A stretch of DNA of 58,852 bases from Patescibacteria group bacterium (GTDB lineage Bacteria; Patescibacteriota; Minisyncoccia; Phycocordibacterales; Phycocordibacteraceae): contig JAGWIS010000002.1 in assembly GCA_028866135.1 (NCBI GenBank), positions 1 to 58,852 on the forward strand. Reading direction: 5' to 3'. Numbering within the stretch: the first letter of the stretch is position 1; every line of letters starts with the position of its first letter. Shown here in pieces: positions 992 to 58,183 of this stretch. The notes beneath the pieces are model-generated. The model was not told where the DNA came from and did no database searches. It saw only the letters and a list, made by a program, of their open reading frames with translations. The translations under genes and the position numbers were made by a program.

Positions 992-2830
992 ATGGAGATT
1001 AGAAATATCGCGATTATTGCGCACGTAGACCACGGAAAGACCGCGCTCACTGACGCTATCCTGAAGCAGACAGGCGCCGCTTCCGAGGGTACTTCGATGG
1101 ACTCAAACGCACTCGAGCGCGAGCGCGGCATCACCATTTACGCGAAAAACGCAGCGGTCGAATACAAGGGCACGAAGATCAATATCGTCGACACGCCCGG
1201 GCACGCCGACTTCGGCAGCGAAGTCGAGCGTGTGCTGCGCTCTATCGACTCCGTGCTGCTCGTCGTCGATGCGCAGGAAGGCCCGATGCCGCAGACGCGT
1301 TTCGTGTTGAAGAAGTCCCTTGAGCTCGGCCTGAAGCCCATCCTCGTGCTCAATAAAATCGACAAGCCGGCGGCGAATCCGGCCCGTTCGGAAGAGCAAG
1401 TGCTCGAACTTTTCCTCGAGCTCGGTGCAAGCGATGAGCAGTCGAACTTTCCGGTCATCTACTCGATCGGGCGCGAGGGCATCGCTATCAAGAATTTGGC
1501 CGACGAGCGCAAAGATCTCACGCCGCTCCTCGACACCATCCTCGAGAAAGTGCCGCCGGCAAATGCGAACGCCGATGCGACCGCGCCCCTCATGCTCCAG
1601 CCCTTCAATCTCGCCTACGACAACTTCCTCGGACGGCTTGCGGTCGGCCGCATCTACTCCGGCACCGTGCGCCCCAATCAGAGCGTATTCATAAAGAAGC
1701 CGGACGGCACGACGCGCGCAGGCCGCACGACGAAAGTCTTTACTTTCAAAGGCCTCGACCGCGTCGAGGCGGCGGAGGCGAGCGCGGGCGACATCGCGCT
1801 TATCGCCGGTCTTCCCGACATCTACATCGGCGAGACGGTCACGACCGACGAGAGCGCCGCGCCCCTGCCGGCGATCGCGGTCGACGAGCCGACTATCGCG
1901 CTCAATTTCTTCGTAAACAATTCGCCCTTTGCCGGGCGGGAAGGGAAGTTCGTGACGAGCCGCCAGATCCGCGACCGTCTCGAGAAGGAGCTTGAAGTGA
2001 ACGTCGGCCTCAAGGTCGATTTCGGCAGCGCCCTAAACGCTTCGCGAAGCGAAGCGTCGGGCGAACATGTCAAGCATGTTTTAGCCGAATCATTTCACGT
2101 CTCCGGCCGCGGAGAGCTCCACATCGCGGTCCTTCTCGAAAATATGCGCCGCGAGGGCTACGAGCTCCAGGTCTCCCAGCCGCACGTCATCATCCGCGAG
2201 GAGAACGGCGTAAAGCTCGAGCCGTTTGAGGAAGTCATCATCGACACCCCGTCGGAATTCCAGGGTGCCATAATCGAAAAGCTCGGCATGCGCGCATTCG
2301 TGCTCCAGAATCTCGTGCAGCACGGCGACATCGTCCGGCTTACGCTTATCGGCCCGACGCGCGGACTTCTCGGCTACAAGAGCAGTTTCGTCGTCGACAC
2401 GCGCGGTGAGGGCATTCTCTCTTCGCGCGTCACCGGCTTCCAGCCATACGCCGGCGAAATCAGGAAGCGCATCGTCGGCTCGATGATCTCGATGGCCGCC
2501 GGCAAGTCGCTCGGCTTCTCGCTCTGGAATCTTCAGGATCGCGGCACGCTCTACATCAAGCCCGCGACCGAAGTGTATGAGGGCATGGTCATCGGCAACA
2601 CCTCGAAAGGGGAGGAGATGGTCGTGAATCCGACGAAGGGCAAACAGCTTTCCAACATGCGCGCCTCCGGCTCCGACGAGGCCATCGTGCTCACCCCGCC
2701 GTTTGAGCTTTCCATTGAGCGTGGACTCGAAATCATGGCAGATGATGAGTATCTCGAAATCACCCCGAAATCAGTTCGTTTGCGCAAACAGCACCTCACC
2801 GAAAACGACCGCGCAAAAGCGCGCCGGTAA
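992..2830 (+). CDS. typA: Translational GTPase TypA/BipA
   Basis: N-terminus [25 protein letters not shown] and NKID G-motifs; 612 aa with BipA-type C-terminal domains. Confidence 0.95.
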
Positions 2831-2889: not shown

Positions 2890-3606
2890 TCACGCCGCTC
2901 CGTACCGTTCCTGGTAGCGGAGGATAGTATCGAGCCTTTTCCCCGCCTCGCCGTTTAAGCGGGGGTTCTCCGCGTAATCCTTCTTGAGGAAGGCGACCAG
3001 GTCGGCAAGCGTGGCGACTGCCACGACGGAAATCTCATGCTGTTCCCGGAACTGCTGCATTGCCGATAGAGAGCTTTCCTCGCTCCAGCGTTCTTGCCGA
3101 TCAAGACCGATCACGCACCCAACGGGATTCCCGCCGTGCGCGCGAATGATCTGAATCGCCTCGCCGGAAGAAGATCCGGTCGTCATCACGTCATCGACGA
3201 CGATAACTCTCTTTCCTTTGACCGGCGCGCCGAGCAGGACGCCCTTTTCGGCGTGCTTTTTCGGCTCTTTGCGGTGAGAGGCGATGCCTATTTCAGGTCC
3301 CGGACCGCAGCCGTGATCCTCGCCGAGAGCAAATGATATGGCAGTAGCGAGCTGGATGCCCTTGTAAGGCGGGCCGTAGACTATCTCCGGCAGTCCCATT
3401 CCCTCGATCCGGAAAGCGTATGCCAGGCTCAGGCGCTTGAGCGCCCGATTGCTGGAGAACGCGCCGATGTCGAAGAAGTACGGGGACATTCTCCCGCCCT
3501 TCAGTTCGAACCCGCCTGGAGGAAACCGTATGGCTCCAGCGGCAAGCGCGTCTCTGACGAACCTCTCGGCATGGGTTAATTCCGTTTCCTCGCGGACAAT
3601 CTTCAT
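2890..3606 (-). CDS. pyrE: Orotate phosphoribosyltransferase
   Basis: PRPP-binding motif VIVVDDVMTTGSS and an N-terminal FELKGGRMSPYFFD motif. Confidence 0.85.
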   Translation of the reverse strand: MKIVREETELTHAERFVRDALAAGAIRFPPGGFELKGGRMSPYFFDIGAFSSNRALKRLSLAYAFRIEGMGLPEIVYGPPYKGIQLATAISFALGEDHGCGPGPEIGIASHRKEPKKHAEKGVLLGAPVKGKRVIVVDDVMTTGSSSGEAIQIIRAHGGNPVGCVIGLDRQERWSEESSLSAMQQFREQHEISVVAVATLADLVAFLKKDYAENPRLNGEAGKRLDTILRYQERYGAA

Positions 3607-3768: not shown

Positions 3769-4299
3769 CTAGCGGGAGGCGCTCTTTCTGAAAGGAGCGG
3801 CGAGATCTTCCGATGGAACAATCTTTTCCGGAGGCAGGAGATACGTGGCACGTCGGCCTTCAATCAAAACGATTTTAACTGGCTCCCGGTGAAGCTCGAC
3901 TTCGCCGACGAGATTGCCGTTCTCGACGCGGATCCCCGACGAGGCAGGGAGGCGCTCGAGAAGGGAACGAAGGAGAGTGTCGATTGCGCCGACGGGTCCC
4001 CACAGCTCAAGGACCATCCAGAAGCTGACCTTCCGGCCGCTGATGTCCACGATAAGCACGCGGGCCTCAAACGGCTTTCGGTTCACGAATGAAATTGCGG
4101 CGTACTTCGCCACGCTCTCTTTCATGAGTTTCGGCGTCAGTCGCCCAAGAGCGCAGTCGTACTTTTCTGCCGCAAGCCGGGTCACGGCTGCGTAGAGGGC
4201 GACGTCTGCTCCGGGGAGACTGTTGGAACTCACTTCGATGTCCAGGATTTCCGAGAGGAGTCCTGGCGAGGCCGCGCGGGCCTGCTTTATTCGGGCCAT
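3769..4299 (-). CDS. Hypothetical protein. Start chosen at MARIKQ, which follows an AAGGAGG Shine-Dalgarno site.
   Basis: Open frame with an SD site 5 nt upstream of the ATG at 4299 and a hairpin plus T-run just downstream. No motif was recognised. Confidence 0.55.
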   Translation of the reverse strand: MARIKQARAASPGLLSEILDIEVSSNSLPGADVALYAAVTRLAAEKYDCALGRLTPKLMKESVAKYAAISFVNRKPFEARVLIVDISGRKVSFWMVLELWGPVGAIDTLLRSLLERLPASSGIRVENGNLVGEVELHREPVKIVLIEGRRATYLLPPEKIVPSEDLAAPFRKSASR

Positions 4300-4470
4300 G
4301 CCGCCTCCTTGGTTAAGGGTTGTACTGCCTGGCCCGAGCCTATTCTTTTTGCAGATGCGAGTCAAGCAAAAATCGCCGAAAGGCGATTTTTGCTTAGACC
4401 TCTTTGGTCCTTATTAAAGAGAAGAGCAGACATTTCACGATGTCTGCTCTTCGATAAACTCTTGGAGCTT

Positions 4471-4794
4471 TCATGTTCTGGGATGCAAGATGACAACGTT
4501 GGGTTCTGTGTTTCGATCGTCGATCTTCAGACATTCCCATGTTACAGAGTAACCGACAGCTTCATAAAGTTCTTTGAGAAGCTGGCGAACGGTGTCGCCA
4601 ACTTTTTCCGATAGATCGAATACGTTGAGGCCCCACTGGTCTGAAACTGTTCCGAAGTGCGAGCGATGCGGAAACGTAAGGGCATCATCAATCGTCTGTT
4701 CGCCCCTCCGTATCATTTCTTGTACCTTTGTCGGTTGTTCGGCGATCTTTCGCCGTACATACAGGACTGGCCATTCATTAGGTGAAAGAGCCAT
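4471..4794 (-). CDS. Hypothetical protein (107 aa)
   Basis: Open frame in an AT-richer segment, followed by the hairpin AGCAAAAATCGCC-GAAA-GGCGATTTTTGCT. No motif was recognised. Confidence 0.5.
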   Translation of the reverse strand: MALSPNEWPVLYVRRKIAEQPTKVQEMIRRGEQTIDDALTFPHRSHFGTVSDQWGLNVFDLSEKVGDTVRQLLKELYEAVGYSVTWECLKIDDRNTEPNVVILHPRT

Positions 4795-4922
4795 GATTTT
4801 TCCTTTCGGTTAAGAGTTGGATGCTTTTCTGTAACAGACTCTAGCATTTCTTATACATAATCACAAATATATAAAAACACCTCGTTTCCGAGGCATTTTT
4901 ATTCTTCCATATCGTTCTACGT

Positions 4923-5386
4923 TGGTGGAGGTGTCGAGAGTCGAACTCGAGTCCGAATCCGTCTATGAAAGCGAGTCTACGACGCATAGTCAGCGTTAGT
5001 GTCTGAGGCAGGGTGCGAGGAACGCAGACGAAACCACTCCTGCCCGATCCCCTAGAACATGCCTTTCGGCATGTTCGGGCGAACATTTGCAAAGCAAATG
5101 TTTTAGCCATTCTTTTGCCAGGAAGGGTGCCCGGCAGCATATTCTGCAGATAATTCCGCCCATCCCTCCTGCTGCAGAAACCAGGGAGGATGAACGTCGC
5201 GCAGGCGAAGAGCCGTTAGGCTGCCGCGTACGCGAACGCGAAGTCACGCATACCGAAGTACGGGGACTTCACGCTTGCAAGAGTGTTCTTGGCAAGTTTG
5301 GGTGCTCGTTGGATTTGGAGTGTCATACGAGCGTGCACTGCGTCGCACGTCTTTCAAGGAACAGACCGTCAAAGCCGGTCACCCCC
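4923..5386 (-). ncRNA. ssrA: tmRNA (SsrA)
   Basis: On the minus strand the 5' end reads GGGGGUGACCGGCUUUGACGG. The 3' end reads GGACUCGAGUUCGACUCUCGACACCUCCACCA, giving a T-arm and an acceptor stem with a G3:U70 pair. An internal tag frame ends ...DFAFAYAAA-TAA (stop at 5218-5216). smpB lies upstream on the same strand. Confidence 0.85.
5049..5109. repeat. 61-nt two-hairpin repeat inside the tmRNA; a copy of the 3' part of the GIY-YIG element at 5384-5445
   Basis: The sequence cccctagaacatgccttYcggcatgttcgggcgaacattt...aaatgttttagcca is shared by both copies. The second hairpin differs by compensatory changes. Confidence 0.7.
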
Positions 5387-5734
5387 CTAGAACATGCCTT
5401 CGGCATGTTCGGGCGAACATTTTTGTTGCAAAAATGTTTTAGCCAGAAAACATACCGTTAACTCCGCATGCCCTTTAGCCATCCTAGCAATATTTTCTTT
5501 TTCTCGCGCGCTCCCCAAAGGCTTTTGAGGAAACGTTCACGTTCGAAAGCCTCTGCTACTGATTCGAACTGCTCAGTATGAATCAGATCGAATGGCCTAC
5601 GATTGGCCGTTGCTCGAACTTGTCCATTCAGATGACGTTCCAATCGTTCAGAAATATTGCTAGTGCATCCGACGTACAGTCCACGATCCTTTTGACTGTA
5701 AAGGACGTAGACGGTGTAAGCCATGCTCTAGGGG
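5384..5734 (-). mobile_element. GIY-YIG ORF-bearing element with 13-nt terminal inverted repeats, abutting the tmRNA 5' end
   Basis: CCCCTAGAACATG at 5384-5396 versus the reverse complement of CATGCTCTAGGGG at 5722-5734 matches at 12 of 13 positions. The ORF ATG lies inside the right repeat. Confidence 0.5.
5458..5724 (-). CDS. GIY-YIG (URI-domain only) nuclease family protein
   Basis: YTVYVLYS...GLYVGCTSN..ERLERH matches the GIY-x10-YVG motif, followed by R and E residues; 88 aa. Confidence 0.85.
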   Translation of the reverse strand: MAYTVYVLYSQKDRGLYVGCTSNISERLERHLNGQVRATANRRPFDLIHTEQFESVAEAFERERFLKSLWGAREKKKILLGWLKGMRS

Positions 5735-5744
5735 ATTGATCGTC

Positions 5745-6188
5745 CTATCTATTTTTCAAAACGCGTCCCGTTTCGCGAAGTGCATCGCGCTTCTTCAAGT
5801 CTTCACGGCGGTCGGATTTTCCTTTGCCGCGGGCGATGGCGATGCGGGCTTTCACGAGCGTGCGGCTAGTATATACCTCAAGAGGGACAATTGTCAACCC
5901 TTTCTTCGACTCGGCCGCAGCGAGCGTGGCGATTTCTTTCTTTGCAAGCAAGAGGCGTCGCGGGCGCTCGGGGTCGTAGTCCTTCTTTATATTTGCCGGC
6001 TGGTACGGGGGAATGGTCATGCCGACGATGAACGCTTCGCCGCCGCGCACCACCACGCGCGCGCCTTCAAGCGAGCCAAGCTTGCTGCGGAGCGCTTTTA
6101 CTTCCTGGCCGATAAGCTCAATGCCCGCCGAGAAACTCTCGATCGGCGCGTATTTGAGCAGGGCTTTCTTATATTCGACGAGGGTCAT
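5745..6188 (-). CDS. smpB: SsrA-binding protein SmpB
   Basis: IELIGQEVKALR, PPYQPANIKKDYDPERPRRLLL and KKGLTIVPL motifs. Start taken at MTLVEYKK. Confidence 0.9.
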   Translation of the reverse strand: MTLVEYKKALLKYAPIESFSAGIELIGQEVKALRSKLGSLEGARVVVRGGEAFIVGMTIPPYQPANIKKDYDPERPRRLLLAKKEIATLAAAESKKGLTIVPLEVYTSRTLVKARIAIARGKGKSDRREDLKKRDALRETGRVLKNR

Positions 6189-6234
6189 GCAGGAGAGTAT
6201 ACCGCGCAAGACGCCAGTTCCGTTCGAAAGATCG

Positions 6235-6630
6235 TCATGGGCTCTTTCCGAACAAGAGACGGTTCACAAAGGCGAATAAGGTCTCCATCTTGAGAGGCGC
6301 TTGTTCGATGGCGACGACAAGCGCATCGTATCCGAAGTCGGGTTCTCGCGGAACAAGTCCGGAAACTTGGCAATATACATCGAACCAAAGCAGGGCGAGT
6401 CGTTTATTCCCGTCCGTTAAAGGATGATTCTTGATGAGAAGACAGAGATATGCGACCGCCTTGTCTCTCGGGGTCGGAAACCGCTCAATGCCGAAATAGT
6501 TTGCATTTACTGTTTTAACGACGGAATCCAGCGCATGCTTGTGCGATTCGCGCAGCGGGAAGCTGACTTGGCCGTTTTTATGCAGCTCGCTATACGTTCT
6601 GCACAACAGTTCTGAGATCGGGTGCATCAA
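6235..6630 (-). CDS. doc: Fic/Doc family toxin (death-on-curing type)
   Basis: HPLTDGNKRLA matches the Doc variant of the Fic motif, HxFx(D/N)GNKR; 131 aa. Confidence 0.8.
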   Translation of the reverse strand: MMHPISELLCRTYSELHKNGQVSFPLRESHKHALDSVVKTVNANYFGIERFPTPRDKAVAYLCLLIKNHPLTDGNKRLALLWFDVYCQVSGLVPREPDFGYDALVVAIEQAPLKMETLFAFVNRLLFGKSP

Positions 6631-8817: not shown

Positions 8818-8889
8818 ACGCCCGTAGCTCAATGGTAGAGCGAACGACTTATACTCGTTTGGTTGGGGGTTCGAGTCCCTCCGGGCGTA
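8818..8889 (+). tRNA. tRNA-Ile with anticodon UAU
   Basis: Manual cloverleaf: acceptor ACGCCCG/CGGGCGU, D-arm GCUC/GAGC, anticodon arm AACGA-CUUAUAC-UCGUU, T-loop UUCGAGU. Confidence 0.7.
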
Positions 8890-8899
8890 CCGATGCGAC

Positions 8900-28565: not shown

Positions 28566-28604
28566 ATTTGTGTGGACCGAGTCGGTAAGCCGAATTCTGT
28601 CTTG

Positions 28605-28700
28605 CCCCGTGAGATAGTCCATCTCGATTTCCATTAACATCTCGAAATCCTTTGCAGGCTCTCGGGTGCAACAGTTATCAATCGGTCTTATCTCATGGGG
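28605..28700. repeat. 96-nt hairpin insert in rnpB (copy 3)
   Basis: Termini CCCCGTGAGATA / TTATCTCATGGGG with internal ATCTCGATTTC...CTCGAAATCC. Confidence 0.75.
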
Positions 28701-28753
28701 CGGGGACGATCATTTATCTGGGCCCGCAATTGCTTGCGAGCTCGAGCGGCACT

Positions 28754-28849
28754 GCCCATGAGATAACCTTATTTCGATTTCAATCAGCCTCTCGAAATCC
28801 GTTAGGTTCTCAAGCGCTGATATAATCTCAACAGTTTTATCTCACGGGC
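28754..28849. repeat. 96-nt hairpin insert in rnpB (copy 2, at the P12 position)
   Basis: Termini GCCCATGAGATAA / TTATCTCACGGGC with internal ATTTCGATTTC...CTCGAAATCC. Colinear with copy 3. Confidence 0.75.
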
Positions 28850-29009
28850 CACGGCCTTGCATGCGGGTAAGGATTTATTCGTTGCACTTCTCCAGTTGCC
28901 TGGAGAACTCATCCCGCCCGAGGGCGGGATGCTCCGCGCTTTCGCTTGGGAGCGTCTCTGTAGGCACCTCTATCCTTGCGGACGACGGGCGTTACCCGCT
29001 ACCTTTCTA

Positions 29010-29105
29010 CCCCATGGGATAACAAATCTCGAAGCAAGTGAAATAGTGAATACTCATCAAACATTTCGATTTCACTCCCACCTCCAGACCTCTTATCCCA
29101 CGGGG
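29010..29105. repeat. 96-nt hairpin insert in rnpB (copy 1; interior inverted relative to copies 2 and 3)
   Basis: Termini CCCCATGGGATAA / TTATCCCACGGGG with internal AAATCTCGAAG...ATTTCGATTTC. Confidence 0.7.
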
Positions 29106-29124
29106 TGCATGTTCGGACTTTCCT

Positions 29125-29402
29125 CCCCGTGAGATAACTACTCACTATTCTGTATACGCGTTTTTAAGTATCTCTTGCCCCAAGCAGTTTTCAGGTAGCG
29201 CTCTCGTGCGAGCGCATCCTTCTTAGATAAGGACGCCTCGTAATAAACAAGTCGCCACGGGCCTCTCGATTTTGTTGCTAACGACCTTCCGTCTCGATGT
29301 TCTTCAAAACGTCTCTTAAGGTCGCCAGTCGAGCCGATGTAAAACTGCTTGGGGCCCCTGAGTACATATACGTAGTGCATACTGAGCAATTATCTCACGG
29401 GG
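29125..29402 (-). mobile_element. 278-nt element bounded by inverted repeats and encoding a GIY-YIG protein, occupying the P3 position of rnpB
   Basis: Perfect 13-nt inverted repeats CCCCGTGAGATAA (29125-29137) and TTATCTCACGGGG (29390-29402). Immediately 5' of AGGAAAGUCC in RNA sense. Confidence 0.6.
29138..29380 (-). CDS. GIY-YIG (URI-domain only) nuclease family protein
   Basis: MHYVYVLRG...FYIGSTGDLKRRFEEH...ERYLK. Start taken at the ATG at 29380 (the track TTG is at 29389). Confidence 0.85.
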   Translation of the reverse strand: MHYVYVLRGPKQFYIGSTGDLKRRFEEHRDGRSLATKSRGPWRLVYYEASLSKKDALARERYLKTAWGKRYLKTRIQNSE

Positions 29403-29561
29403 CGATCGTCTGACTCGGTCCGGAAATACTATACCACATCGCGTATGTGCGGTATAGCCCGCGAGAGAAGAGTCTTTTGATGTGTACAACGCGACGAGCT
29501 GCTGCACCCCATGAGGTATACTAAACGGCATTATCATTCAGTAACCGCAACAGAATTTATT

Positions 29562-37613: not shown

Positions 37614-37686
37614 GCTTGGATAGCTCAGTTGGTAGAGCACTTCCCTGAAGAGGAAGGGGTCGTCGGTTCGAGCCCGACTCCAAGCA
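37614..37686 (+). tRNA. tRNA-Phe (anticodon GAA)
   Basis: Acceptor GCUUGGA/UCCAAGC, D-arm GCUC/GAGC, anticodon arm CUUCC-CUGAAGA-GGAAG, T-arm GUCGG-UUCGAGC-CCGAC. Confidence 0.9.
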
Positions 37687-37818
37687 CTACTTCGCTCCAT
37701 TCGGAAATGGAGCTACGAAGTGCGCGGCACAATGATAGAGCAAACCGGTGGATTCGTCCGCCTTTCTGCGAAGTAGCCCTTCGTAGCCCGATAGGGCGAA
37801 GTAGGGCATAATTCCTGT

Positions 37819-38055
37819 ATGCATTACGTGTACATCCTACAGAATGGGAATGGAAGATGTTACGTCGGTTATTCACATGATTTGAAGCGGAGGTTGAGTG
37901 AGCATCAGTTTGGGAACGTCAGCACGACAAAAGTTTTCAAAAATGCCAAGCTTGCGTGGTATTGCGCCTTCGCCAGCAAGAGGAAGGCGCTCGGCTTCGA
38001 GAAATATCTGAAAGAAGGATCGGGACACGCTTTTGCGAGGAAGCGTCTCATATAA
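37819..38055 (+). CDS. GIY-YIG (URI-domain only) nuclease family protein
   Basis: MHYVYILQN...CYVGYSHDLKRRLSEH...EKYLK; 78 aa, 132 nt downstream of tRNA-Phe. Confidence 0.85.
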   Translation: MHYVYILQNGNGRCYVGYSHDLKRRLSEHQFGNVSTTKVFKNAKLAWYCAFASKRKALGFEKYLKEGSGHAFARKRLI

Positions 38056-45275: not shown

Positions 45276-46241
45276 TCACCGGGCAAAGCGCACGTAGATG
45301 CCGGCGGGGACGACGCGCTCAGAGGCGGATTCACGTATGAGAAGCTCGCCGCACTCGCCGCCAATTTCTCCAAAAGCGCTCTCGACCGCCTGCGCGAATG
45401 AGCGCGGCGCGTATCCGGCGGCGTAGCCGTTGAGGAGGAAGAACGATCCGGATTTCTCCGACAGAAGTTCTTTGAGCGAGGCGAGGAGCGCAGGCAGATT
45501 TTCTTCAATCTTCCACACTTCGCCTTTGGCACCGCGGCCGAAGGCCGGCGGGTCGAGGATGATGCCGTCATATTTCGCACCGCGCCGCGCTTCGCGCTTC
45601 GCAAATGCAAGCGCATCGTCGAGCATCCAGCGGATGCGGCCCTCGGGAATCTCTGAAAGCCGCGCGTTCTCGTGCGCCCAGTCGAGAGACTGCTTTGATG
45701 CGTCTACGTGCGTGACGAATGCGCCCGCGTGCCCAGCCGCGAGCGATGCGACGCCCGTATACCCAAATAAATTCAGCACCTGCGGCATGTGGGACATACT
45801 ATGTCCCACATCGGACGCGGGATGCACGATGTCCCGGCACCGTTCGGAAAGCCACTGCCAGTTCGGCGCCTGCTCGGGAAAGAGTCCTGTGTGCTTGAAG
45901 CCGGTGAGCCGCACGAGGAGTCGGACTGCATTCCACGAAATCTGCCATGATTCCCCATCACGACCAGCAAAACTGGTCGTGGGGCGAGCGCCAGCAACTG
46001 GTGCTTTAGCCGGCACGGATTTCTTTACGTGCCATTCACCTTTCTTTTCATGGAATGCGAATTCCGCGTGCGCCGTTTTCCACAATTCCGGACGCAGCTT
46101 GCTCCACAGCGCTTGCGTTTCCGGCCGAGCGACGACGACGTCGCCGAAACGCTCAAGCTTCATCCCATCGCCTGAGTCGAGGAGTTCATAATCGCCCCAC
46201 GGTTGAGTGTGTAAATGTTGGTCGTATTGCATACCCGTCAC
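45276..46241 (-). CDS. Class I SAM-dependent rRNA methyltransferase (RlmI/RlmK-like)
   Basis: VLNLFGYTGVASL motif I, VDAS, and IILDPPAFGRG motif IV. Confidence 0.82.
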   Translation of the reverse strand: MTGMQYDQHLHTQPWGDYELLDSGDGMKLERFGDVVVARPETQALWSKLRPELWKTAHAEFAFHEKKGEWHVKKSVPAKAPVAGARPTTSFAGRDGESWQISWNAVRLLVRLTGFKHTGLFPEQAPNWQWLSERCRDIVHPASDVGHSMSHMPQVLNLFGYTGVASLAAGHAGAFVTHVDASKQSLDWAHENARLSEIPEGRIRWMLDDALAFAKREARRGAKYDGIILDPPAFGRGAKGEVWKIEENLPALLASLKELLSEKSGSFFLLNGYAAGYAPRSFAQAVESAFGEIGGECGELLIRESASERVVPAGIYVRFAR

Positions 46242-56902: not shown

Positions 56903-57022
56903 AGATAGCCGCTATCATAGCAGAACCGAAAACTATGCAAATCTTGACAGCGTTCATTAAAATGTCTTAGGGCTAAATCAATTTTGCTGCAACATTGATC
57001 GCCCGAACACGCGAAGCGTGTT

Positions 57023-58183
57023 CTAGGGAAGGAATTGCTGGAAAAACTTTCCGAAAAACGCACGCATGCTTTTCTTCGGCGCGGTGGTGTCGCCGGTGAG
57101 GCCCCAGAGCGCGAGGCCGTATGCGACGGCCCATGTCGCATCGCGGATTTTCGTGTCGGAGGAGAGACGGAACTCCGCAAGCCGTGCCGGAAGCTTCAGC
57201 GATCCTTTCGCGATGTCGCTAATTGATCCCACGCCCGCGCCGCCGCCCGAGATGATGATGCCGGCGGGCAAGGGGCCGCGGCGCCCGAGGGATTTCAAGT
57301 GCTTGTCGATGAGCGCAAACATCATGTTGAGCCGGCTCGCGATGAGGTCGTCGACTTTCTTGCGCGAATACATCTGTCCGGAGAGCCGGCCGAGCTTCAC
57401 GCGCTCTGCTTCCTCGAGCGAGATGCGGAATCCAAGCGCGATGTCGTCGGTGATGTGGCTTGAGCCGATCGGGAACACTTTTACGGAGATGGGAATGCCC
57501 TCGTCGTAGACGACGATGGAGACCGTCTCGGCGCCGATGTTTGCAAGCACGCAGCCTTTCATCTTCTGGTCGCCCTCAAGCAGGACGTAGGAGCCCGCGA
57601 GCGGGGAAGCCATCTGATCGATGATTTCAATGTCGGTGTCCTCGACCGCTTTCGCGAGCGCTTCCTCGTGCTGGGCGAGGCAGGTGATGAAGAGATAGTC
57701 GGCTTCGAGGCGGACGCCCTTCATGCCGATGGGGTCGCCGAGCACTTTGGTGCCGTCCACGCGATATTCGACGGGGATGCTGTGGAGCACGTGGCGATTG
57801 AGGAATCCGGGCGCGGCCGCTTCGCGCGCGGCTTTCGCCGCCTTCTCGAGATCGAGCGTTGTGATCTCCTGGTCGGCGCGAGAAATGATGGCGAAGCCGG
57901 TTGCGCGCGCTTCATCAAGGGAGATTCCGCCGACCGCGAGGAATCCGGCCTTCAGTGGGACGCGCGCCGCCGCCTCCGCCTGGCGCTTCGCTTCGCGTAT
58001 GCTCGCGGAGACTTCCTCAGTATTGACGATGTAGCCGTGGCGCAGTCCCTTTGACTCCGCGAGGCCCGTGCCGAGTATGCGCACCTGCCGGGCGCCCGAG
58101 CGCTTATCCGAGAGTTCCTCGATGACGACTATCTTTACCTGGTAGGTCCCGATGTCGATGCCGGTGGCTATGCGTCGTTTCAT
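57023..58183 (-). CDS. ftsA: Cell division protein FtsA
   Basis: Actin-like ATPase motifs GIDIGTYQVKIVV, ANIGAETVSIVVY and IISGGGAG. Located upstream of ftsZ. Confidence 0.93.
   Translation of the reverse strand: MKRRIATGIDIGTYQVKIVVIEELSDKRSGARQVRILGTGLAESKGLRHGYIVNTEEVSASIREAKRQAEAAARVPLKAGFLAVGGISLDEARATGFAIISRADQEITTLDLEKAAKAAREAAAPGFLNRHVLHSIPVEYRVDGTKVLGDPIGMKGVRLEADYLFITCLAQHEEALAKAVEDTDIEIIDQMASPLAGSYVLLEGDQKMKGCVLANIGAETVSIVVYDEGIPISVKVFPIGSSHITDDIALGFRISLEEAERVKLGRLSGQMYSRKKVDDLIASRLNMMFALIDKHLKSLGRRGPLPAGIIISGGGAGVGSISDIAKGSLKLPARLAEFRLSSDTKIRDATWAVAYGLALWGLTGDTTAPKKSMRAFFGKFFQQFLP

Follow-up and report, generated by a model that had tools for sequence, protein, structure and literature searches.

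The smpB–GIY-YIG–ssrA unit

A 58,852-nt stretch of DNA from a Patescibacteria group bacterium, a member of the Paceibacteria (Parcubacteria) within the ultra-small bacteria of the candidate phyla radiation (contig JAGWIS010000002.1; the whole stretch is referred to as the window), carries on its minus strand a compact trans-translation unit composed of smpB, a small GIY-YIG open reading frame (ORF) and ssrA, the gene for transfer-messenger RNA (tmRNA). A palindromic module of about 60 nt abuts the 5' end of the tmRNA, and further copies lie inside the tmRNA, in protein genes and in an intergenic spacer of the window. Several of these sites are empty in related genomes, and the module is probably a small mobile DNA element whose home copy sits beside the nuclease gene. 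Loci and contigs of other genomes set against the window are designated by L-numbers (L001, L008 and so on). The features of the unit are:

5745-6209, minus strand: smpB, the first gene of the conserved unit (PF01668, E=2.7e-40)
5868-5897, minus strand: sigma-70-like promoter match inside smpB, TTGACA-18-TATACT, a consensus match only (11 of 12 positions)
5720-5736, minus strand: left arm or "box" AUCCCCUAGAGCAUGGC, which includes the start codon of GIY-YIG; its sequence complements the leader module's 3' end together with the initial Gs of the tmRNA
5458-5724, minus strand: GIY-YIG ORF, 88 aa, single-domain, UPF0213 type (PF01541, E=3.5e-13)
5385-5444, minus strand: leader copy of the module, GGCUAA-hairpin 1-CGCCCGAAC-hairpin 2-CUAGGG, ending at tmRNA G1/G2 (72 bits, E=1e-17)
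4923-5386, minus strand: tmRNA (ssrA), 464 nt, from ARAGORN and Rfam RF00023 (79.2 bits, E=4e-29, full-length model)
5216-5293, minus strand: tmRNA tag frame, AKNTLASVKSPYFGMRDFAFAYAAA and a stop codon, homologous to the ARAGORN tag of L001 and ending ...AYAAA before the stop
4871-4902, minus strand: terminator-like hairpin and U-run of the intrinsic type, just 3' of the tmRNA

Read 5' to 3' on the minus strand, the gene order is a Fic/DOC ORF (6235-6630), smpB (5745-6209), GIY-YIG (5458-5724) and tmRNA. Pfam matches and tmRNA coordinates agree with a preliminary description of this DNA, which had placed the GIY-YIG ORF between smpB and ssrA on the same strand. The 88-aa protein belongs to the UPF0213 branch of the GIY-YIG superfamily by both motif and active site, with Y6, Y17, G19, R27, H31 and E63 of the GIY-YIG active site invariant across 20 sequences (alignment A3). 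It matches PDB entries 1ZG2 and 1YWL (E=4e-12), structures of the UPF0213 group without assigned function, and its nearest homologues are annotated from Patescibacteria, Kaiserbacteria and Paceibacterota.

The arrangement is conserved. A genome scan with one genome per species gave 80 loci, labeled Kaiser-, Zambryski-, Nomura-, Sung-, Vogel-, Colwell-, Wolfe-, Yonath- and Liptonbacteria, among others. The GIY-YIG orthologue has smpB immediately upstream in 80 of 80 loci and the tmRNA immediately downstream in each locus where ARAGORN or an nhmmer profile detects one; ARAGORN itself overlooked the tmRNA in about 30 of the 80. Every contig with a 75-83% identical protein, eight closer loci in all, shows the same smpB, GIY-YIG, tmRNA order. 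SmpB identity across the 80 species loci spans 37-85%. Among the 78 loci used for the identity comparison, median identity to the window is 61.6% for the GIY-YIG protein versus 51.4% for SmpB, and the nuclease is the more conserved of the two in 74. No empty smpB–ssrA junction was found among the orthologue-bearing genomes (80 genome loci and the 8 closer loci), and these loci revealed neither a presence/absence polymorphism nor a second location of an ORF-bearing unit. Because the gene holds the same position in 80 of 80 loci and is conserved above the level of SmpB, it is a fixed operon member and not a recent mobile insertion. Our literature searches found no description of an smpB–GIY-YIG–ssrA operon and no paper treating smpB together with GIY-YIG.

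A terminator-like site was found 3' of the tmRNA and none between the GIY-YIG ORF and ssrA, and smpB contains a promoter-like site; from these we infer that the ORF, the module and the tmRNA are co-transcribed. The smpB-internal site is a possible promoter for GIY-YIG and ssrA, judged from its consensus match. A promoter within the module was considered and rejected, as the module has no credible -35/-10 pair and the sole good match is the one inside smpB.

The tmRNA is well delimited. Its RF00023 score exceeds the threshold of 47 bits, with a tRNA-like domain and a tag frame, and in the acceptor CACCUCC pairs with G1-G7, G3:U included. ARAGORN and RF00023 agree on 4923-5386 of the minus strand, which leaves the 5' end where it had been placed earlier and bears out the proposed length of about 464 nt; in relatives the tmRNA is 408-430 nt long. 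Owing to a run of six Gs (5387-5382), the end of the inverted repeat discussed below overlaps tmRNA nucleotides 1-3; an overlap with the tmRNA 5' end had been suggested. The tag that ARAGORN reports for the window tmRNA, AEYAAGHPSWQKNG and a stop codon (5103-5147), is a mis-call, the homologous frame giving AKNTLASVKSPYFGMRDFAFAYAAA; the tag finder was probably misled by the inserted module.

Structure of the palindromic module

The module reads CUAAAAC-hairpin 1-GUUCGCCCGAAC-hairpin 2-GUU(U/C)UAG over about 60 nt, with ends complementary over 7 bp and GG on either flank. When the leaders and left arms of 85 loci were compared, the sequence before tmRNA G1 was almost always GGCUAA, hairpin 1, CGCCCGA(A/U)C, hairpin 2 and (U/C)UAG, followed by GGGG. 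The final five nucleotides of the leader are near-invariant (UUUAG or UCUAG), GGCUAA, CGCCC and UAGGG are invariant unpaired segments, and covariance-model matches adjoin tmRNA G1 in essentially all 85 loci. The UAA of GGCUAA serves as the nuclease stop codon in many loci. The model (R1) was built from other genomes and then run on the window. As the module is near-symmetric (CUAAAAC...GUUCG-CC-CGAAC...GUUUUAG), its reverse strand also matches the model, at a lower score.

Both hairpins that the preliminary description had proposed do fold, with z-scores of -4.5 for the leader copy and -5.5 for the copy inside the tmRNA. Its suggestion that they are maintained by compensatory change likewise stands: in an alignment of 48 distinct modules 97% of cells are paired, 19 of 22 pairs have changes on both sides, none of 500 shuffles does as well and shifting the partners reduces pairing to ~45%. 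At its base, hairpin 2 switches between GAAC...GUU and GAUC...GAU, a change that is cleanly compensatory. A census of the stems of 190 distinct modules counted 3472 Watson-Crick pairs, 35 G:U, 18 A.C and 28 others, and some hairpins are palindromic right through their center. Since wobbles are far fewer than is usual in structured RNAs, and since palindromy can extend through the center, these data point to a palindrome at the DNA level.

Modules adjoin the nuclease gene 3' in every locus, and in nine or more lineages 5' as well; every operon-internal copy is in sense orientation. Many lineages carry two or three modules or half-modules in tandem between GIY-YIG and the tmRNA (L004-L006 at 3255-3400; L019, L026, L027, L040, L041, L044, L060, L068, L072 and L088), where neighboring units have the junction GG in common (GUUUUAU-GG-CUAAA).

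A search of Rfam 15, including self-cleaving ribozymes, group I/II introns, riboswitches and leaders, returned no match overlapping any module copy at E<=1. The likeness of GUUUUAG...CUAAAAC to a CRISPR repeat was treated as coincidental, there being no spacers or arrays. The literature we searched contained no account of the module and none of a palindromic repeat associated with GIY-YIG; the matches listed for its core strings were mostly HIV and primer sequences, with none on bacterial repeats.

The leader also takes part in an inverted repeat around the nuclease ORF. As originally claimed, 13 nt of CCCCTAGAACATG (5384-5396) and CATGCTCTAGGGG (5722-5734) bracket the ORF and match at 12 of 13 positions; the lone mismatch is G:U in RNA sense, so that all 13 positions can pair, and the minimum-energy fold pairs 5720-5736 with 5384-5400. 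In sequence the left arm is similar to the 5' end of the module itself (GCCUAAAGCAU versus GGCUAAAACAU). It is kept in the nearest relatives, in L004 with one G-to-A/C-to-U double change, and set against the module end it has a single variable position, at which both compensated and mismatched cases occur. The arm is present in about 28 of the 85 loci and missing from roughly two thirds of those with an orthologue, so that terminal inverted repeats (TIRs) do not surround every member ORF. Folding predicts an ORF-closing loop for 15 of the 25 loci that have the left box and for about 1 of 41 that do not, and we rejected ORF closure as a class-wide feature, the prediction being tied to the left-box subclade. 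The left arm is thus best described as a real feature of that subclade which, according to the predicted folds, may close the ORF into a loop; such pairing could mask the start codon or provide a stem for processing. The arm does not mark out a mobile unit. The RNA comprising the whole ORF plus leader folds with a z-score of -8. The ORF also contains a perfect 12-bp inverted repeat (CUAGCAAUAUUU and AAAUAUUGCUAG, 5484-5495 with 5652-5663), which was discarded as a conserved structure: it is confined to the nearest relatives, and in 69 loci a mean of 5.7 of the 12 positions pair between cognate arms, against 5.5 between non-cognate ones.

Dispersed copies and GIY-YIG paralogues

The covariance model identifies five module copies in the window, in four distinct contexts. 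Besides the leader copy these are:

5050-5108, minus strand: internal tmRNA copy (64 bits, E=2e-15, full-length model)
2031-2086, minus strand: copy in bipA/typA (ORF 992-2830, plus strand), antisense (48 bits, E=5e-11)
45953-46011, minus strand: diverged copy in an S-adenosylmethionine (SAM)-methyltransferase ORF (45276-46241, minus strand), sense and read through (35 bits, E=2e-7)
56971-57028, plus strand: copy between ftsA and ftsZ, antisense to both (60 bits, E=3e-14)

The leader and internal tmRNA copies are 87% identical over 63 nt (blastn E=5e-15), in agreement with the earlier view of a 61-nt block in the tmRNA as a secondary copy of the sequence between GIY-YIG and ssrA. An Infernal alignment to RF00023, which had been proposed as a check, leaves the block as an unmodelled 62-nt insertion. 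It is located in a single-stranded linker of the pseudoknot domain, between a CCGG hairpin and the GGCAGGA/UCCUGCC helix (position +279). Alignment with the tmRNAs of L001, L008, L009 and L011 shows the block missing from all four, the empty site reading ..UCUAAAUAA-GG-GAUCGGG, and identifies it as an insertion and not a native pseudoknot. The proposal that it is an ORF-less relic of an ORF-bearing insertion did not hold up: it is a complete, independent element of ~60 nt, found also in bipA, the methyltransferase ORF and the ftsA–ftsZ spacer and, in other genomes, by tRNAs and in rnpB.

A second tmRNA site follows closely on the tag stop, ~200-230 nt into the gene; it is occupied in L019, L020, L024, L055 and L088 and empty in the near relatives L087, L050, L066, L079 and L085; the filled/empty comparisons are L088 with L087, L050 and L066, and L055 with L079. 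With two separate sites filled, the tmRNA has been struck more than once. In the window, BipA carries 18 extra residues exactly at the module, between domains II and III, which are not in L008, L010 or L108; to judge from these sequences, the bipA module is an in-frame 18-codon insertion in a conserved protein. Insertion polymorphism, filled versus empty, is accordingly seen at bipA, the tmRNA +279 site and the second tmRNA site. The copy between ftsA and ftsZ differs from the leader copy by compensatory changes in both hairpins, and ftsA ends on a stop codon (57023-57025) complementary to CUA of the module, meaning that the insertion supplies the stop.

Most copies have GG on either side of CTAA...TTAG, and 4 of 4 empty sites have a single G-run. 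The GG flanks fit, short of proof, a 2-bp target duplication. We also considered insertion by microhomology, given that the empty tmRNA site CUAAA..AGGG resembles joined module ends; the simpler GG model is provisionally preferred because the other three empty sites show no such likeness. There are signs of copying within genomes, in that the leader and internal copies of the window share the hairpin 2 stem and the two copies of L024 share hairpin 1.

An exact-pattern scan of metagenome contigs yielded at least 120 stretches with 124 module instances, some contigs holding several copies; as in the window, the module can thus be dispersed in multiple copies in one genome. Among the 124 matches listed, the contexts are:

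28: tmRNA 5' leaders
17: same strand, abutting tRNA nucleotide 1 (Glu 8, Ser 4, Ala 3, Trp 2)
5: reverse orientation, abutting a tRNA 5' end
3: abutting the RNase P RNA GGAGGAAAGUCC strand (P3 position; the P4 strand of the rnpB core)
17: within ORFs 120 aa or longer (11 in sense and 6 in antisense orientation)
54: remaining intergenic or other contexts

Owing to the symmetry of the module, reverse-oriented copies again place GUUUUA next to tRNA nucleotide 1. In total ~43% of these 124 sampled copies adjoin the 5' edge of a tmRNA, tRNA or rnpB core. Either insertion is targeted there, or it is harmless only there since RNase P trims the transcript, or the module has been co-opted as a leader. 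The same type of scan over 2.9 million viral contigs gave no exact-pattern match to the module, and a phage origin was set aside.

Stable RNA genes are also a setting of the GIY-YIG family, with all three GIY-YIG genes of the window located in or beside one. The features outside the smpB–ssrA unit are:

29141-29380, minus strand: GIY-YIG paralogue ORF, 80 aa, in the P3 loop of rnpB, bracketed by CCCCGUGAGAUAA and UUAUCUCACGGGG and directly before GGAGGAAAGUCC
28570-29440, minus strand: RNase P RNA gene (rnpB) with the paralogue (RF00010, 50.6 bits versus a gathering threshold of 100; the match covers 28570-29078 only)
37819-38055, plus strand: third GIY-YIG ORF, 78 aa, 130 nt 3' of tRNA-Phe (37614-37687)

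Further 3' in rnpB, two ORF-less blocks (~29005-29100 and 28755-28850) have near-identical ends. By profile search, at least 10 other lineages have a GIY-YIG paralogue immediately 3' of the tmRNA, and in metagenomic contigs paralogues immediately precede tRNA-Arg, -Ile, -Ser and -Cys. L153 (5848-6301) has, in order, a module, the first 15 nt of a tRNA-Ser, a GIY-YIG ORF ending at the tRNA and a complete tRNA-Ser. Module, partial tRNA 5' fragment (15-27 nt), insert and complete tRNA also occur in this order in L124 (11132-11360) and L134 (4498-4827), and in L124 a 13-nt inverted repeat brackets the tRNA. GIY-YIG ORFs have been described in non-intron insertions of rRNA genes in the candidate phyla radiation (CPR) (PMC11270868).

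A probable mobile element and its competitors

Taken together, these data make it probable that the module is a small mobile DNA element, of the kind of REPINs (doublets of repetitive extragenic palindromes, REPs) or Rickettsia palindromic elements (RPEs), with a home copy retained clade-wide beside the nuclease gene. The leader copy is kept throughout the clade, and further copies arise at G-runs elsewhere. One copy came to lie in the pseudoknot-domain linker of the tmRNA, adding ~57 nt to a gene product of ~408 nt, and others in frame in bipA, in the methyltransferase gene and in the ftsA–ftsZ spacer. Transcription from smpB or its internal promoter would pass the nuclease ORF and then the module before entering ssrA, RNase P would remove the leader after ...UAG, and the internal copy would stay in the mature tmRNA as two extra hairpins that are tolerated.

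How the module would move is a more tentative matter. A possible answer, though less likely than not, is that the linked GIY-YIG nuclease mobilizes the module in the manner in which REP-associated tyrosine transposases (RAYTs) mobilize REPINs. GIY-YIG homing enzymes leave 2-nt staggered ends, and a cut of this type would account for GG on both flanks. It is from this stagger, the genomic linkage and the analogy to RAYT/REPIN that the connection is drawn. The single-copy, vertically inherited GIY-YIG protein would cut target or donor DNA and thereby spread the module. In its full form this would be a REPIN-RAYT-like partnership with a minimal GIY-YIG (UPF0213) nuclease, spreading the module to GG sites and preferentially to the 5' edges of stable RNAs, where RNase P processing renders insertion harmless; we offer it as a speculative proposal, on the doubtful side.

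Several observations weigh against mobility or against the role given to the nuclease. The class-wide -1 position and the ~43% of copies at stable-RNA 5' ends exceed what random selfish insertion predicts, and the excess suggests a role at the RNA level or a targeting mechanism. Hairpin 2 is closed by a G.U (G.T) in 182 of the 190 modules, a feature more in keeping with RNA than with DNA. GG could be part of the element instead of a target duplication, and few copies were seen outside the operon in most other genomes, where sampling extended to ~5 kb. The tie between nuclease and module is one of linkage, not of co-variation across genomes; one contig, L135, has smpB, module and ssrA with no GIY-YIG in between, and the 88-aa protein consists of the catalytic domain, with no evident DNA-binding domain.

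The alternative that survives best, a possible though not a favored one, is that the module is chiefly a functional RNA: a structured leader or processing signal for RNase P substrates that also serves as operon punctuation, cut after UAG by RNase P, RNase III or another nuclease, with the dispersed copies as by-products. It would explain why the module ends exactly at tmRNA -1 in essentially all loci with a near-invariant UUUAG or UCUAG, why so many metagenomic copies are tmRNA leaders (28) or abut tRNA 5' ends (17 and 5) or the P4 strand of rnpB (3), why all operon-internal copies are sense, why GGCUAA, CGCCC and UAGGG are invariant and unpaired with a G.U closing hairpin 2, and why L135 retains the module without the nuclease gene. 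It sits poorly with the bipA and ftsA–ftsZ copies, which are antisense to transcription, with ORF-internal copies in both orientations, and with the roughly half of copies that lie by no stable RNA. Near-pure Watson-Crick stems (1% G:U), unlike those of typical structured RNAs, some hairpins that are perfect palindromes through the center, and the lack of any Rfam match at E<=1, all known self-cleaving ribozymes included, also speak against it. A leader role is compatible with mobility, and both may well apply at once.

Much less probable is that the GIY-YIG protein is a domesticated factor of trans-translation or RNA maturation with the module as its RNA recognition element (cut, for example, between UAG and G) and no part in DNA mobility. 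A class-wide, very strongly conserved gene between smpB and ssrA, paralogues beside tRNAs, tmRNA and rnpB, and a module end that always coincides with the mature 5' end are what such a factor would lead one to expect. To our knowledge, however, DNA is the substrate of the GIY-YIG enzymes characterized to date; the window contains rnpB, RNase P is therefore available, and the in-frame insertions in protein genes would be left unexplained. A survey of the GIY-YIG superfamily is given in PMC1564403.

The model of the preliminary description, a composite TIR–GIY-YIG–TIR mobile element at the tmRNA 5' end with the internal block as its decayed, ORF-less remnant, draws on an inverted repeat that is real, kept in close relatives and predicted to pair, on paralogues inserted in or beside stable RNA genes (rnpB P3, tRNA-Phe, and tRNA-Ser of L153 with its 15-nt duplication) and on the published CPR rRNA insertions (PMC11270868), but it is very unlikely and already largely refuted by synteny, given an ORF fixed in 80 of 80 species under purifying selection stronger than that on SmpB (74 of 78 loci), no empty site in relatives, no second copy of the composite TIR–ORF–TIR unit, an internal block that is a complete module (64 bits over the full-length model) and a left arm missing from about two thirds of orthologous loci.

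We return to the mobile module and its likeness to known systems. Palindromes that enter protein and tmRNA genes are already known from Rickettsia, as are nuclease/repeat partnerships from REPIN-RAYT. RPEs are roughly 100-150 nt long, the module, at ~60 nt, being shorter, and we know of no enzyme for RPEs. Of the 526 RPEs in R. bellii, 53 lie within protein genes and a single one within the tmRNA gene (PMC1458961). Both are short dispersed palindromes of reduced genomes that insert into protein genes in frame, in either orientation and without destroying them, and both enter the tmRNA gene; their sequences are unrelated and their hosts belong to different phyla, the likeness being behavioral only and taken from descriptions. 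Unlike RPEs, the module has a tmRNA 5' copy fixed clade-wide, a bias to stable-RNA 5' ends and a physically linked candidate nuclease.

REPIN-RAYT systems occur in single copy and descend vertically (10.1101/2022.05.22.493013). The GIY-YIG gene is likewise single-copy, conserved, flanked by repeats and vertically inherited (80/80 synteny), and the module shares with REP/REPIN-RAYT the hairpin doublet forming a larger palindrome, tandem clusters by the gene and long persistence. The linked gene differs, encoding a GIY-YIG (UPF0213) protein and not an HUH Y1 transposase of the IS200/IS605 type. REPs are described with a GTAG/CGTC head (PMC3733652), which the module lacks, and whereas REPs are intergenic only, module copies occur inside genes and RNA genes. 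We found no paper linking GIY-YIG to REP or RAYT.

T4 SegB is a free-standing GIY-YIG homing endonuclease in a tRNA cluster, and Seg proteins carry DNA-binding domains. Like SegB and the CPR rRNA-insertion ORFs, the genes described here are small GIY-YIG genes in or beside stable RNA genes. In contrast to sporadic homing ORFs, the ssrA-linked gene is fixed, orthologous, strongly conserved and reduced to the catalytic domain, and the moving part is a 60-nt, ORF-less module and not the ORF. MITEs (miniature transposable elements with inverted repeats) resemble the module in their short TIRs (here CTAAAAC/GTTTTAG), flanking dinucleotides (here GG), non-coding nature and multiple copies; they differ from it in that no parent insertion sequence with a transposase is present, its stems covary between genomes and its junction nucleotides are invariant class-wide, a combination uncommon among MITEs.

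The module accounts for oversized tmRNAs in CPR genomes and adds 18-20-residue insertions, otherwise unexplained, to conserved proteins; similar insertions disturb the detection of rnpB, as in the window, where it falls below the Rfam threshold. With the GIY-YIG gene, the trans-translation locus of an entire bacterial class has a conserved third member, previously undescribed, and the UPF0213/YhbQ/YazA family, for which structures but no function are known, gains a hypothesis that can be tested. If the nuclease–module link is true, it would represent a new kind of long-lived nuclease–repeat partnership, a first function for the orphan UPF0213 family and a new class of bacterial mobile DNA; if the RNA-leader reading is true, the module would be a new conserved processing signal for RNase P substrates.

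The neighborhood of the unit varies among relatives. Directly 3' of the tmRNA, on the opposite strand, a 521-aa serine recombinase (Resolvase/Recombinase domains) is encoded in L001 (3675-5240), L004 (3749-5314), L006 and L007, which suggests an integrated element at ssrA in these close relatives; the window has two ORFs without a Pfam match at this position (4471-4794 and 3769-4365). On the other side, the Fic/DOC-family ORF (6235-6630, minus strand) lies between ftsH and smpB, and it looks like a lineage-specific gene insertion because ftsH and smpB adjoin in L001, L004 and L008. A tRNA-Ile with anticodon UAU (8818-8891, plus strand) lies beside ftsH, and the same tRNA is found in the same place in L004, L006, L008, L020 and L040.

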